DNA from: Deferribacterales bacterium
Lineage (GTDB): Bacteria; Chrysiogenota; Deferribacteres; Deferribacterales; Geovibrionaceae
DNA: 58,351 nt
Assembly: GCA_050253335.1 (NCBI GenBank)
Contig: JBFWJG010000008.1
Location: 1-58,351, forward strand
Reading direction: 5' to 3'
Under the pieces are notes generated by a model. The model ran no database searches and was not told where the DNA came from. It worked only from the letters and a program-made list of their open reading frames with translations. Positions 45,980-58,351 of the stretch are shown piece after piece; positions within the stretch are counted from its first letter, which is position 1; each line of letters begins with the position of its first letter. The position numbers and the translations under genes were made by a program.

Positions 45980-46972
45980 ATGAAAGCCGTACTTATGAAC
46001 GGATTCGGAGGAATTGATGTTCTCAGTGTCGGTGAGGCCGAGAAGCCTTCACCGAAAGAGAACGAAGTGTTGATAAAAGTCGCAGCCACATCCATAAACA
46101 GACCCGACCTTGTGCAGAGAGAGGGCAAATATCCCCCGCCTCCCGGAGATTCTGAAATCCTCGGGCTTGAAGTTGCGGGCGTAATCGAAGAGCTGGGCTC
46201 AAAGGTTACGGGCTGGAAGAAGGGCGACAGGGTTATGACTCTTGTGGGCGGCGGCGGTTACGCTGAATATGCCGTTGCATATGCTGAGCACCTTATGCCT
46301 ATTCCTGCGAACATGAGCTTTGAGCAGGCCGCATGTGTGTGCGAATCATATATTACCGCATTTCTGAATGTATTCATGATCGGCGGGTTTCAGGACGGCG
46401 AAACAGCTATCTTCCACGGCGGCGGCGGCGGAGTGAACACAGCGGCAATTCAGCTTTCAAACGCTCTTACTCCTAATTCAAAATATATAGTGACAGTCGC
46501 ACCTGATAAGGAAGCGAAGGTTAAGGAACTCGGCGCATCGCTCACGGTGAACTTCCGTGAGGTTTCAGATTTTTCCGAGATGGTGAAGGAATTTACCAAC
46601 AAGAAGGGGGTCAATCTCATTCTTGACCACGTCGGCGCGAAATATCTTTCTCCCAACATGAATTCGCTCGCCTACGCTGGCAGGCTGGTGATAATCGGCG
46701 TCACAAGCGGAATCAAGGCGGAGCTTAATCTTGCCCTGATGATGGTTAAACGCCAGCAGATAATAGGCTCTGTGCTCCGTTCCAGACCCGTCTCGGAAAA
46801 AGGGGAGATTGTTAAGGAATTCACAAGGAGAGCCCTTCCCAAATTCGCGGACGGAAGCATTGTGCCCATAATCTACAAAGTCTTCCCCATAGACGAAGCC
46901 GCGGAAGCCCACAAAACCATGGAAGAAGACAAGCATTTCGGGAAAATCGTTCTCAAAATAGCGGATCTGTAA
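45980..46972 (+). CDS. NAD(P)H-quinone oxidoreductase, PIG3/MDR family
   Basis: INRPDLVQREGKYPPPPG, LGLEVAG, GGGYAEY, HFGKIVL. Confidence 0.93.
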   Translation: MKAVLMNGFGGIDVLSVGEAEKPSPKENEVLIKVAATSINRPDLVQREGKYPPPPGDSEILGLEVAGVIEELGSKVTGWKKGDRVMTLVGGGGYAEYAVAYAEHLMPIPANMSFEQAACVCESYITAFLNVFMIGGFQDGETAIFHGGGGGVNTAAIQLSNALTPNSKYIVTVAPDKEAKVKELGASLTVNFREVSDFSEMVKEFTNKKGVNLILDHVGAKYLSPNMNSLAYAGRLVIIGVTSGIKAELNLALMMVKRQQIIGSVLRSRPVSEKGEIVKEFTRRALPKFADGSIVPIIYKVFPIDEAAEAHKTMEEDKHFGKIVLKIADL

Positions 46973-47190
46973 TTTCCGATACCGTGATATTCAGGCACAC
47001 GGATGTGCCCGCGGAGGGCGTACCGGAGCATATGCGAGGAACGCAAGCGAAGCCAGAGCAGCAAGAAGCTCTGCTTCGCAGGCTGCGAGTTCTTAAAAAC
47101 TGCATGGACGCAGGTTTTTACGAACTATAATAAGGACAGACAAGCATTTCGGGAAAATCGTTCTCAAAATAGCGGATCTGTAATTTCCGA
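46927..47190 (+). repeat. 158-bp structured insert flanked by perfect 53-bp direct repeats of the oxidoreductase 3' end
   Basis: AGACAAGCATTTCGGGAAAATCGTTCTCAAAATAGCGGATCTGTAATTTCCGA at 46927-46979 and 47138-47190; insert segment 47039-47125 is 74/87 identical to 58127-58213. Confidence 0.9.
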
Positions 47191-47223: not shown

Positions 47224-47241
47224 ATCTGTATAAGTTCACCC

Positions 47242-47320
47242 ATGCCCTTCTTTTAAAGGAGGGCATTTTCTTTTATGTTAAACAGCTTCCCCCTTTATAA
47301 AGGGGGACTGAGGGGGATTT
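47242..47320. repeat. REP-like palindromic repeats
   Basis: ATGCCCTTCTTTTAAAGGAGGGCAT (inverted copy at about 55745-55788) and CCCCCTTTATAAAGGGGGACTGAGGGGGATTT. Confidence 0.55.
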
Positions 47321-47379
47321 TACAGATATGAAAGCCTGTTGCCATGTTTCTCATCAGTCCGGCAGTCCCGGCACTGTTT

Positions 47380-55860: not shown

Positions 55861-57831
55861 TCAGTATTTGAATTTTTCAATTGACTGTCTTAAAGATTCC
55901 GCTGTGGACTCAAGGTCGCTCAGGGTTTCTGCTATCTCGTTTACAGCCGCCGCACTCTGCTCAATTCCGGCGGATATTCCGGTTGTGCTGTGTCCTGTGT
56001 GCTGAATCGCTTCGGACTGCTCATTAATAGAAACGGTTATGATGCTGTTTTTCTCGGCGACATCGGCGACTGCGCTGTTGATACGGTCGAAGGCGCTCTT
56101 TGTGCTTTCGGACTGAATAACGCATTTCTCAACATTTCCGGAGGCGGCCTGTGCGCCTTTTACAGCGTTTTCGGTTTCTGTTTTGAAAAGGGTTACAATG
56201 CTGATTATCTCCCCTGTTGATGACTGAGTTTTTTCAGCGAGTTTCCGCACTTCGTCCGCGACAACCGCAAAGCCTCTGCCCGCTTCTCCGGCTCTTGCCG
56301 CCTCTATGGCCGCATTGAGCGCCAGCAGGTTTGTCTGGTCGGCTATTTCGTTTATAACTTTGACAATATCGCCTATCTCGTGAGAAGTTTCGCCAAGCTT
56401 CTTGATTGTTCTCGCCAGACTGTCACTGTCGTTCTTTATGGCAGTAATCAGGCGGACTATGCTTTCCAGCTCAGCACGTCCGTCAGCAATGCTTTTTGTT
56501 GCTGACTGCGCCGCATGCTCAACTTCTTTGATGTTTCCTTCAATGGAAACTGCGGTGGCACTCATTTCGCTCATAGCCGCCGCAATGCCTGTGACCTCTT
56601 TTGACTGCTCGCCGAACGTAACTGAGAGCTCCTCCACCGCCGCGGCGAGCTGGGTTGTGCCCGATGCGACAACGGATACGGATTTCGCTGTCCCGCCCAC
56701 GAGAAACTGGATGTTCTCTATGAAGCAGTTAACATTTGCTGCAAGTTCGCCTATTTCATCGCGGTTGGATACGTTTATGCGCCTTGTAAGGTCGCCGTCA
56801 CCTTCATTGAGCTGGGCTGTGAGGTTTATAAGCAGGCGGATATTCCCTATTACCGACTTCAGGAGAACAAGGATGAGCGAGACAAAGGCTACAAAGCCCA
56901 CAGCGGCCATTAATCCCGTGAGGGAAAGCTGGCTTTTTGCCGCTGCTATTTTGGAATTCATGTAGTCCGTCATGCTGAGCGCTATGAGGTCTTCCGTTTC
57001 TTTCATAGAGTTTATCTTCCGGGTCATCAGGCTGAACCACTCCTCGGCACTTATGCCGAAACCGCCTTCGGAAGCTTTTGCAGCAGCGGTTTTTTCCATT
57101 TCTGCCGCTTTTATGCTGTTGTCGGAGTTTTCTGCTTTTTCAGAGCTGAGAACAAATTCACTTCTGGCGGTCCACTCAAAGGATGAAAGGTATGCTTTTC
57201 TTTCACTGGCAAGACGGAGATATTTCTCATACATCCCGCCTGTGAAACGGTCATCCGCGAAGACGGATGCGAGAACAGCGCACATAAGCCCGGTCTGTTC
57301 CTTGGCGCTCATATAGTTGGTGTATGCGATGATGTCTTTTGCAAGCTGAGGGTCGCTTACATCAGCCGCAATACGGGAAACAGCGCTGAGAAACAGCCTG
57401 TTTATTTCGGTGTAGTAGTTTATAACCTCAGCGGGTTCGGCTGTTCTGTCCGCTGTGTCTCTGCGTATTTTCGCAAGCCTGCCAAGCCCGCTCATAGCCT
57501 GAGTAATGTCTTCTGATTTGAAGGATGCCTCTTCAACAGCTTTTCTGACTTTTTCCAGAGCTTCGTCAGTTGCAGTGTGCTGAGTGCTTAAACTGCTGAG
57601 GAAGGACTTGTCCCCTCCGGAAAGATAGCCTGCGGAAAGCCCGCGCTCTTTCTGGAGCTCATGCACGAGGGCGCTGGAGGAAACAGAGAATTCCACAAAC
57701 TGCCGGAGCGCCTTTGTTCTCATGAGTATGCCAGCATCCTGAAAAAGGCCGGAAACTGTGTAGAACGTTAGCATAATAAACGGGATTAACAGTGCCGAGA
57801 GTACTTTTGTTTTTATTGACATATTTTTCAC
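55861..57831 (-). CDS. Methyl-accepting chemotaxis protein with NIT (nitrate/nitrite-sensing) domain
   Basis: TM-NIT ([16 protein letters not shown])-TM-HAMP-MCP signal ([38 protein letters not shown]). Confidence 0.93.
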
Positions 57832-57890
57832 GGCGTCACCTTTATCAGAGAGAATTGTTTGTAATATATATTACAATGCAAAAAAAATAA

Positions 57891-57904
57891 TTGATCAACA
57901 TCAA
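57891..57904. promoter_or_regulatory. FNR/CRP-family box upstream of the NIT chemoreceptor
   Basis: TTGAT-CAAC-ATCAA, exact FNR consensus TTGAT-N4-ATCAA, 60 nt upstream of the start. Confidence 0.6.
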
Positions 57905-57958
57905 TTTAAAAAAATAAAGGGTTTGAGCGATTTTACTGCACATTTTTGGAATAAATGT

Positions 57959-58351
57959 CAAGGACGCAGGTTTTTCTTAATAATGTGGATTAACAGGATA
58001 TTCAGTTTGATGTTTTTGCAAACAACTCCAAGGACGGAGTTTCACCGTGTGAAGCGAAGCCGAACCGAGTTCGGCGCGAGCGTGTACAGAAAAGGGACAG
58101 GATGTGCCCTTTTCTGCGGCAAAACAGAACGCAAGCGAAACCAGAGCAGCAAGCAGTTTTACTGCGCAGGCTGCGAGTGAAGAAAAACTGCAAGGACGCA
58201 GGTTTTTCTGAACAATATAAATTAAGACAGGATGTTCAGTTTGATGTTATTAAACAGTCCCAAGGATGGGACTGCGCCGTGCGAAGCGAAGCCGAACTGA
58301 GTTCGGCGCGAGCGTGTACATCAAACTGACAGGATGTTCAGTTTGATGTTA
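57959..58351 (+). repeat. Tandem array (~232-bp period) of a hairpin-rich element with GGA loops; runs off the window
   Basis: 57959-58088 is repeated at 58191-58320; eight A(N)GGA motifs, mostly in stem-loops; 58127-58213 is homologous to the 47039-47125 insert. Confidence 0.85.

Follow-up and report, generated by a model that had tools for sequence, protein, structure and literature searches.

The last few hundred bases of one bacterial contig, positions 57959–58351 of a 58,351-nucleotide stretch (the window) of contig JBFWJG010000008.1 from a Deferribacterales bacterium (assembly GCA_050253335.1), form the end of a tandem array, and that array is part of a new Geovibrio-wide family of structured, mosaic repeats under purifying selection. 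This much we regard as secure. Given the copy-by-copy upkeep of these repeats in evolution, the family probably has a job, and in what follows we have tried to ask what that job might be: are the repeats pieces of RNA that engage the regulator CsrA, pieces of DNA that matter to the chromosome as DNA, or mobile elements that serve only themselves? We lean, with somewhat less than even confidence, toward transcribed CsrA-binding modules that spread by copy-choice. The genome of the window (2.58 Mb, 142 contigs, 99.94% complete) is called G000 here, and its congeners are called G001, G002, and G003.

Units of the family are ~90–165 nt long and come in two related types, A and B. A B unit opens with a hairpin (HP1) whose stem of ~7 bp, its two innermost pairs mostly C-G, carries the hexaloop A-N-GGA-X. 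Next come two GC-rich and nearly invariant core parts, CGCCGTGCG-N-AGCGAAG and CGCGAGCGTGT, which flank a second hairpin (HP2, with a stem of 6–7 bp and a loop of 3–5 nt); then a third hairpin (HP3), with a stem of 10–12 bp and the loop C-AGGAX-G (often ACAGGATGT) or C-ANGGAX-G; and finally, an A/T-rich tail, TATNAA..., that often ends in AAGGACAG. A units follow the same plan with a longer core. Mean folding energies are −8.9, −10.3, and −12.8 kcal/mol for HP1, HP2, and HP3. The same stem variants reappear in varying combinations across units, and the units are therefore mosaics. A basal stem joining the two flanks was not found among 129 copies, where own-flank duplexes come to −2.08 kcal/mol and permuted partners come to −2.47 (SD 0.16). 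The core, precisely because it is invariant, leaves covariation nothing with which to decide its fold, and by eye neither a K-turn nor another named motif fits it. A separate observation, made at 58275–58310 of the window and family-wide, is that the commonest HP2 variants have as their 5′ arm the same GCCGTG that occurs in core part 1, so that the 3′ arm (CACGGC+GC) can pair with either; for the window copy, RNAfold favors pairing between the two core parts over HP2.

A first-pass annotation of this DNA had held that the element is selected for its structure and not for coding, and the larger alignment bears it out. In 54 distinct copies, standard pairs fill 94.2% of 1507 pair cells (68.4% when shuffled), and both sides have changed in 399 cells against a shuffled mean of 117; none of 500 shuffles reached either figure. 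With the partner slid by 1–3 columns as a control, only 33–45% of the cells are paired. RNAalifold finds double changes at 21 of the 28 pairs. In the 54-copy count, HP2 (helix 4 of the alignment) has double changes at 5 of 6 pairs, with 99.1% of its cells paired. The stems, in other words, covary, and at orthologous loci they are kept while free positions change. A coding reading, tried by eye, was rejected: one frame would make the free N a third codon position, but it meets stops in HP3 in the copies read, and another forward frame gives TAG at the free position of the core whenever N is T.

Comparison between species tells much the same story. G003 has a B copy at the orthologous site for 50 of the 62 syntenic G000 arrays, and in orthologous arrays, the copy number often differs while the locus-specific stems are usually the same. 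The best orthologous hairpins have mean identities of 0.79 (HP1), 0.77 (HP2), and 0.72 (HP3), against 0.49, 0.44, and 0.37 for random pairs. Substitutions were counted in 23 orthologous pairs whose members have the same length and are 85% identical or more, a filter that favors conserved pairs; their flanking genes are 86% identical. The two core parts changed at 3 of 598 positions (2 of 368 in part 1 and 1 of 230 in part 2) and the GGA at 1 of 159, and the stems changed at 70 of 1144, with 14 compensatory doubles and 17 single-side changes. The free positions moved far more: the N of the core in 10 of 23, loop X in 11 of 53, and loop N in 6 of 53. Most copies are old and kept by purifying selection at each locus rather than decaying, a pattern unlike that of a decaying transposon relic.

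How large is the family? The expectation of further genomic copies was amply confirmed, with ~190 in the genome of the window and members in all three other genomes of the genus. BLAST of the array against its own genome gives 81 matches; iterated nhmmer gives 170 B matches and 60 A matches (22 of them above 60 bits, those below being cross-matches to B), for a total of 190 matches in 109 arrays. In G003, where our counts cover 2.8 of 3.0 Mb (the last 197 kb left out), 287 B copies scoring above 40 bits stand in 127 arrays of 1–8 copies each. A covariance model made from the 54 copies and run over 68 genomes of the phylum finds at least 60 matches in each of the four genomes of the genus. In the sister genus, two of four genomes have 5–6 matches each (E ~1e-12) and a third has 2 (E 4e-4), and the remaining genera have weak matches only (1–11 each, E 1e-4 to 1e-7). 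Among the papers listed on Geovibrio repeats (judged by titles and abstract openings), on repetitive extragenic palindromic (REP) sequences with CsrA, and on intergenic GGA-hairpin or Csr repeats, we found no published description of the family. Many G000 contigs begin or end inside A or B units (C8:58351, C43:2-198, C64:1-309, C80:1-138, C5:70-293), and the repeats are probably a main cause of the breaking of the assembly into 142 contigs.

Why think of CsrA at all? According to Duss et al. 2014 (PMC4005645), CsrA/RsmE binds with high affinity where an ANGGAX hexaloop sits immediately on a stem and its N and X, which may vary, are looped out; leaving out N lowers the affinity. The fixed and free loop positions of our family match this rule, with A, GGA, and the closing C-G fixed and N and X free. 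By the same rule, HP1 is the high-affinity loop form and most HP3 loops are the form without N; a unit thus offers several A(N)GGA motifs in hairpin loops (ANGGAX in HP1, AGGAX or ANGGAX in HP3), both closed by C-G. A single csrA is present in the genome, and it follows directly after fliW and a flagellar hook-associated gene. Both flagellin leaders (G000 C10:8300-8400 and C10:19680-19735, minus strand) have a hairpin with the hexaloop C-AAGGAA-G, on stems GAC/GTC and GCGC/GCGC, 30–40 nt before a GGA-containing ribosome-binding site (CAAGGAGGATG). A hairpin plus a GGA ribosome-binding site is the two-site layout of CsrA-controlled flagellin mRNAs. The earlier suggestion of a Csr-type sponge RNA, then, stands in part: loop anatomy and the likeness to the flagellin leaders speak for it and CsrA binding is putative, but the repeats do not belong to CsrB, RsmY, RsmZ, or any other Rfam 15 family: these models have no match in the window at the gathering threshold, in 57850–58351 at E ≤ 10, or in 10 loci (30.7 kb) at E ≤ 1, where the loose thresholds gave only noise.

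For the placement of the units, gene calls are crude longest open reading frames that cover 91% of each genome, and the orientation classes carry some error. Units lie mostly just downstream of genes, ~3:1 in the sense direction, and many begin 3–12 nt past a stop codon or abut it; the copy at 47042 is placed between a stop codon and a terminator. In G003, 81 arrays occupy co-directional gaps (60 sense and 21 antisense), 38 convergent gaps, and 8 divergent gaps, where all gaps longer than 20 nt number 784, 214, and 288, respectively. For G000, the classes are 31 sense and 10 antisense arrays, with 25 in convergent gaps, 5 in divergent gaps, and 23 where a contig ends. The GC skew of G003 turns near 0.15 and 1.61 Mb.

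How did the copies get where they are? None of the 109 arrays of G000 holds copies on both strands. Direct repeats of 18–82 bp flank at least 35 of 90 arrays, and in many cases these repeats mark the borders of tandemly duplicated units that take in flanking gene sequence. Arrays gain and lose units and recombine at loops and cores, whereas wholly new insertions are rare. Partial copies start or stop in the HP1 loop, the HP3 loop, or the core, and some hairpins are hybrids joined within shared loop sequence. Twelve of 62 G000 arrays are without a B copy in G003, as are 35 of 93 in the reverse direction. Five lineage-specific gains could be traced (Table 1); for those at G003 1162549 and G000 C29:15042, deletion between repeats in the other species may be the alternative. 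The inserted DNA has a 5′ boundary that varies by case and a 3′ end that is the tail, and the repeat at insertions opens, by eye, with a GACAG-like word resembling the tail end (that is, microhomology of the AAGGACAG tail to the target). At G003 1162549, the second repeat copy is the native start region of a recombinase gene and acts as the 3′ arm of HP3, and this HP3 stem has no other full-length match (blastn-short) in the 2.8 Mb of G003 or in G000. At G000 C29:15042, the 51-bp repeat holds a GGA-loop hairpin that the G003 site has too. From these footprints, we infer that copy-choice (template switching at stable hairpins, with upstream re-entry by microhomology) and ordinary tandem duplication and deletion made the copies.

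The first-pass annotation had offered, as its other candidate, a non-autonomous mobile element served by an enzyme in trans, and it had looked to the sequence beyond 58351 for the gene of such an enzyme. Lineage-specific insertions there certainly are, but the rest of the picture is otherwise. The Y1 transposase profile (PF01797) has no match in G000 (its control was positive in six known genomes) and neither has the reverse transcriptase RVT_1 (PF00078); most copies are old and under purifying selection; and what a congener has past the array is a citrate synthase gene. An IS3-like element is the only multicopy transposase seen in G003, a 1.27-kb insertion sequence with 3–4 nearly identical copies (G003:C1 965631-966904, 2484681-2486940, 2498013-2499288).

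Some further observations belong beside these. The A unit of G003:C1 2649681, set against G000 C15:30037-30077, is inserted where a gene begins, within its first 39 nt; the gene product opens with MRFKSITLQGFKSF and looks SMC-like. This start occurs twice, and in the intact copy, other sequence has taken the place of the native upstream region. Another repeat family occupies 47224–47368 of the window, with paired hairpins CCCTCCTTT..AAAGGAGGG and CTTCCCCCTTT..AAAGGGGGA; G002 and G003 contain dozens of matches to it, and it often stands beside A or B units. A third family, with the hairpin GTCATTCTGAG..(loop)..GAAGAATCTC / GAGAGATTGCTTCACCC..GGGTTCGCAATGAC, is interleaved with B copies (G003:C1 ~2407960-2408500, G000 C30:24352-24529, and the surroundings of C43:17524) and forms part of a 145-nt tandem unit in G003.

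If the repeats are CsrA-binding modules, they would work roughly as follows. Units would be transcribed within 3′ untranslated regions (UTRs) or intergenic RNA, and the two loops of each would bind the one CsrA of the organism, which is linked to FliW; a lone copy would tether CsrA to a given mRNA, and a tandem array would serve as a multivalent decoy in the manner of CsrB. The invariant core might be a scaffold or the site of a second factor. Spread would come from errors of host replication, namely tandem duplication and switches of template (copy-choice) at hairpins, with no enzyme of its own. The sense bias and the position within transcription units speak for an RNA role, as does a modest excess of G-U pairs in HP2 and HP3 on the top strand, at 46 against 31 in G000 and 62 against 36 in G003. 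HP1 is excluded from the G-U comparison: it gave 35 vs. 94 in G003, and because a run on G000 with tighter segments gave 14 vs. 7, we take the G003 result as an artefact of pairs inside the complementary loop. In a related version that we hold to be rather improbable, the element would be a self-propagating CsrA decoy that spreads by template switching and either enters beside local sequence or borrows it to form one arm of an outer hairpin, after which selection keeps 3′-UTR CsrA tethers and sponges. A borrowed arm would explain the locus-specific stems, and G003 1162549 would be an example.

A good deal weighs against CsrA binding as the function, and we would rather set it out than hide it. 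FliW-type CsrA in Campylobacter acts, according to the abstract of PMC4894983, without antagonizing small RNAs (sRNAs). Several hundred strong decoy sites would presumably be a heavy load on a FliW-type system, and the best-conserved part of the unit, its core, is not accounted for by CsrA. G-U pairs number only 60 of 2714, the stems being almost purely Watson-Crick, and only 1 of the 17 single-side changes made a wobble pair; this near-absence of G-U is unusual for selection at the RNA level. About a quarter of the arrays run antisense to their neighbors, and these copies are equally intact (mean score of 56.2 vs. 59.4 for sense copies; 1.78 vs. 1.83 of 2 GGA loops) and equally retained (8 of 9 vs. 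22 of 27). The window array is one of them, antisense to both neighboring genes, and as a Csr-type sponge, it would therefore need its own promoter; no convincing promoter flanks it (one weak promoter-like site vs. 0.8 expected by chance), and a top-strand terminator was not found flanking it. By GC skew, the top strand of G003 arrays is on the leading strand in 86 and on the lagging strand in 41, which partly competes with the sense bias, and for lagging-strand genes, the arrays split 10 sense to 8 antisense; transcription and replication direction thus both seem to matter. Metatranscriptome contigs that match the family are pieces of other copies and carry no strand information. Those from four runs include a close relative's chemoreceptor gene and short pieces of other copies, with no cover over 57880–58125 and no link to the window array, and they neither prove nor disprove transcription of the units.

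The main rival of the CsrA reading is a role at the level of DNA, which we judge unlikely but still a serious contender. Here, the palindromes of an element akin to REP sequences and bacterial interspersed mosaic elements (BIMEs) would form extruded hairpins or cruciforms, or would fold where the lagging-strand template is single-stranded, and a DNA-handling protein (of the nucleoid, a topoisomerase, or a replication or recombination factor) would bind core and loops, the CsrA likeness being secondary or coincidental. Such a role sits well with stems that are ~98% Watson-Crick on both strands, with strands that fold about equally well (z of −5.3 and −6.9), and with antisense copies as intact and retained as the rest, the window array included (94–99% identical in three species). 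It also suits the 86 of 127 arrays whose top strand is leading (and hence belongs to the lagging-strand template), duplication and deletion breakpoints in hairpin loops and cores, and a placement downstream of genes that avoids divergent promoter gaps, as is familiar from REP and BIME sequences. It gives no account, however, of loops that hold exactly A, GGA, and the closing C-G constant and let N and X vary, as the CsrA/RsmE rule has it, nor of the same hairpin in the flagellin leaders; the 3:1 sense bias and the small top-strand G-U excess are not predicted by it, and it comes with no candidate protein identified.

Two other ideas seem to us quite improbable. One is a selfish non-autonomous mobile element, like miniature inverted-repeat transposable elements (MITEs), REPINs, or PATEs, whose folded single-stranded DNA or RNA is recognized by a trans-acting enzyme and which has no host function. 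High copy number, contigs that end in repeats, presence/absence polymorphism between species (the 12 of 62 and 35 of 93 above), five gains flanked by direct repeats, and the exchange of hairpin modules between copies are all what it would lead one to expect. A defined-end transposase fits poorly, however, with duplications of 18–82 bp and a 5′ boundary that is not fixed; there are no terminal inverted repeats or complementary flanks and no inverted doublets in any of 109 arrays; a genome 99.94% complete yields no Y1/HUH transposase or reverse transcriptase, with only the IS3-like element in G003; and the majority of copies are ancient orthologues that strong purifying selection maintains. The other idea, to which we give if anything a slightly smaller chance, is an RNA element independent of CsrA, with 3′-UTR hairpins that shield upstream mRNAs from 3′ exonucleases or, near a stop codon, modulate termination and ribosome release; for REP elements, 3′-end protection and effects on termination and ribosome release have been described. 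The many units at or 3–12 nt past a stop codon, the sense bias, and the very stable hairpins would follow naturally, whereas conserved loops and an invariant core would not be needed, and antisense copies are in fact equally conserved.

As for the array itself, it runs in the order B-A-B with partial copies of the two repeat types, and the contig end falls inside it, 58351 being the last base of the window. B copy 1 spans 58024–58116 with a tail after it, and B copy 2, at 58255–58351, is truncated by the contig end. A chemoreceptor gene that has an NIT sensor domain (55861–57831, minus strand) points away from the array, which lies on its upstream side. The 232-bp period that was noticed at the outset is present: a repeat search of the window pairs 58020–58112 with 58252–58344 (93 nt, 81%) and, at the same spacing, 57959–57993 with 58191–58225 (35 nt, 86%). 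The stems quoted at that time for their kept pairing are in the sequence at 58024–58041, 58255–58274, 58087–58116, and 58318–58349 (in HP3, CAGAAAAGGG-ACAGGATGT-GCCCTTTTCTG against ACATCAAACTGA-CAGGATGT-TCAGTTTGATGT at 58318–58349), and the distant copy is there at 47042–47128 with its GAAGC-TCT-GCTTC and TAAAAA/TTTTTA variants. In G003, the array sits between the citrate synthase gene and the chemoreceptor gene, both genes on one strand and the B copies on the other. It keeps the same stems in G000, G002, and G003, with B copies 94–99% identical where the chemoreceptor gene is 75–86% identical, and in HP1 a T-A pair of one species is C-G in another. Upstream of the chemoreceptor gene, at 57852–57909, two palindromic blocks (TTTGTAATATATATTACAA and TTGATCAACATCAA) are kept in the same three genomes in a spacer that is otherwise not conserved; they may be operator or promoter sequences.

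Table 1. Features of the array at the contig end (window positions), of the insertion near 47 kb (window positions), and of the other lineage-specific gains
Feature	Position	Strand	Basis or comparison
Partial A-type unit: loop and 3′ arm of last hairpin (CAAGGAC GCAGGTTTTTC) and tail	57959..57993	+	direct repeat of 58191-58225
Partial B-type HP3: loop ACAGGAT and 3′ arm only	57993..58013	+	88% to 58226-58249, repeat group D2
B copy 1, HP1: AACTCC / hexaloop AAGGAC / GGAGTT	58024..58041	+	sequence; helix 1 of family alignment
B copy 1, core part 1: TCACCGTGTGAAGCGAAG, slightly diverged	58042..58059	+	nhmmer match 58027-58108; family alignment
B copy 1, HP2: CCGAAC CGA GTTCGG	58060..58074	+	helix 4 of family
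B copy 1, core part 2: CGCGAGCGTGT	58075..58085	+	invariant alignment columns
B copy 1, HP3: CAGAAAAGGG / ACAGGATGT / GCCCTTTTCTG	58087..58116	+	inverted repeat; helix 5
A-type unit without first hairpin: core GAACGCAAGCGAAACC and tail	58127..58227	+	nhmmer A match 58130-58216, 78.9 bits
Same A unit, outer nested hairpin: GCAGC / GCTGC	58146-58150 / 58170-58174	+	sequence
Same A unit, inner nested hairpin: GCAGT / ACTGC	58153-58157 / 58161-58165	+	sequence
Same A unit, last hairpin: GAAAAACTGC / AAGGAC / GCAGGTTTTTC	58182-58208	+	sequence
Partial B-type HP3: loop and 3′ arm	58226..58249	+	D2 reference copy
B copy 2, HP1: CAGTCCC / hexaloop AAGGAT / GGGACTG	58255..58274	+	sequence; fold
B copy 2, core part 1: CGCCGTGCG-N-AGCGAAG, free N at 58284	58275..58291	+	alignment; substitution counts
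B copy 2, HP2: CCGAAC TGA GTTCGG	58292..58306	+	sequence, alignment, covariation
B copy 2, core part 2: CGCGAGCGTGT	58307..58317	+	sequence, alignment
B copy 2, HP3: ACATCAAACTGA / CAGGATGT / TCAGTTTGATGT; contig stops two bases later	58318..58351	+	inverted repeat, 12 nt, 100%
Left copy of 53-bp target duplication: last codons and stop of upstream gene	46927..46979	+	alignment with three congeners
Complete A-type insertion, 158 nt between direct repeats (gain at 47042; 53-bp repeat)	46980..47137	+	site empty in G001, G002, G003
Same insertion, first hairpin: GGCAC / ACGGAT / GTGCC	46994-47009	+	
Same insertion, A core and last hairpin	47042-47128	+	
Right copy of 53-bp target duplication, then the original terminator hairpin of the gene	47138..47190	+	alignment with congeners
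Gain of B unit; 27-bp repeat	G003 563743		site without unit in G000
Gain of A unit; 39-bp repeat, covers gene start	G003 2649681		site without unit in G000
Gain of B unit; 23-bp repeat	G003 1162549		site without unit in G000
Gain of B without its own HP1; 51-bp repeat	G000 C29:15042		site without unit in G003

Interspersed structured repeats are common, and their function is rarely clear. This family joins features seldom found together: loops that follow the CsrA rule, an invariant core, compensatory stems specific to their loci, and footprints suggesting copy-choice over a transposase. If the CsrA reading is true, a FliW-type CsrA would, for the first time to our knowledge, have a layer of RNA antagonists or tethers, and we know of no genome-wide 3′-UTR tether or sponge layer in FliW-type systems; if the DNA reading is true, the family would be a chromosome element of a new, BIME-like sort whose recognition core is very sharp. 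The question of sponge, mobile DNA, or both, which comes from the TwoAYGGAY elements taken up below, is directly testable here, with Geovibrio species that are cultivable, a single FliW-linked csrA, and a small genome.

Where, then, does the family belong among known systems? With CsrB, CsrC, and RsmX/Y/Z, it shares repeated A(N)GGA hairpin loops of the high-affinity form, its arrays giving from 4 to more than 12 loops. Unlike them, it is no single-gene sRNA but a set of ~190–290 dispersed copies, mostly in the 3′ regions of other genes, with no Rfam match, no recognizable promoter or terminator of its own at the window array, and a host CsrA of the FliW-partnered type. REP sequences and BIMEs of enterobacteria and pseudomonads, with their REP-associated tyrosine transposase (RAYT), are palindromes found by the hundreds outside genes, downstream of them and rarely between divergent ones, and they form module mosaics with compensatory stem changes and clusters of variable copy number. 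The Geovibrio repeats are likewise high-copy extragenic palindromes at gene 3′ ends, mosaic in build and variable in their clusters, but the units are longer (three hairpins and a core), the arrays are all direct with no inverted REPIN doublets (0 of 109), no Y1 transposase was found in G000, and it is the loops, not the stems, that are conserved. MITEs such as Correia elements are small, non-coding, intergenic, and high in copy number, co-transcribed with their neighbors and polymorphic between relatives. Our repeats are small, non-coding, high-copy, intergenic, and polymorphic in the same way; they differ in having no terminal inverted repeats, a 5′ boundary that varies between insertions, duplications that are long and variable (18–82 bp) instead of short and fixed, and no cognate transposase identified. 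Unlike what a SINE-like (short interspersed) retroelement would suggest, G000 has no PF00078 reverse transcriptase match.

The nearest analogue is TwoAYGGAY (RF01731). Its elements are reported in a 2026 preprint (10.64898/2026.09.22.753630) to be multi-copy in Pseudomonas, linked with REP arrays, and mobile-element-like, and they have been proposed as Csr/Rsm sponges. The Rfam TwoAYGGAY model itself has no match at E ≤ 10 in 57850–58351 or at E ≤ 1 in the 30.7 kb of arrays (10 loci), and the differences are plain enough: Geovibrio units have no common basal stem; their loop hairpins are parted by an invariant core with a third hairpin; their loops are ANGGAX rather than strictly AYGGAY, with the second and last positions free (A, C, or U); and they stand in direct tandem arrays, not divergent doublets, in another phylum, Deferribacterota. 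What the two have in common, going by that preprint, is two hairpins with GGA-centered loops (hexaloops, or in part pentaloops, in Geovibrio), multiple copies with large differences in copy number, association with other repeats, and the pairing of proposed Csr/Rsm binding with mobile-element-like expansion.

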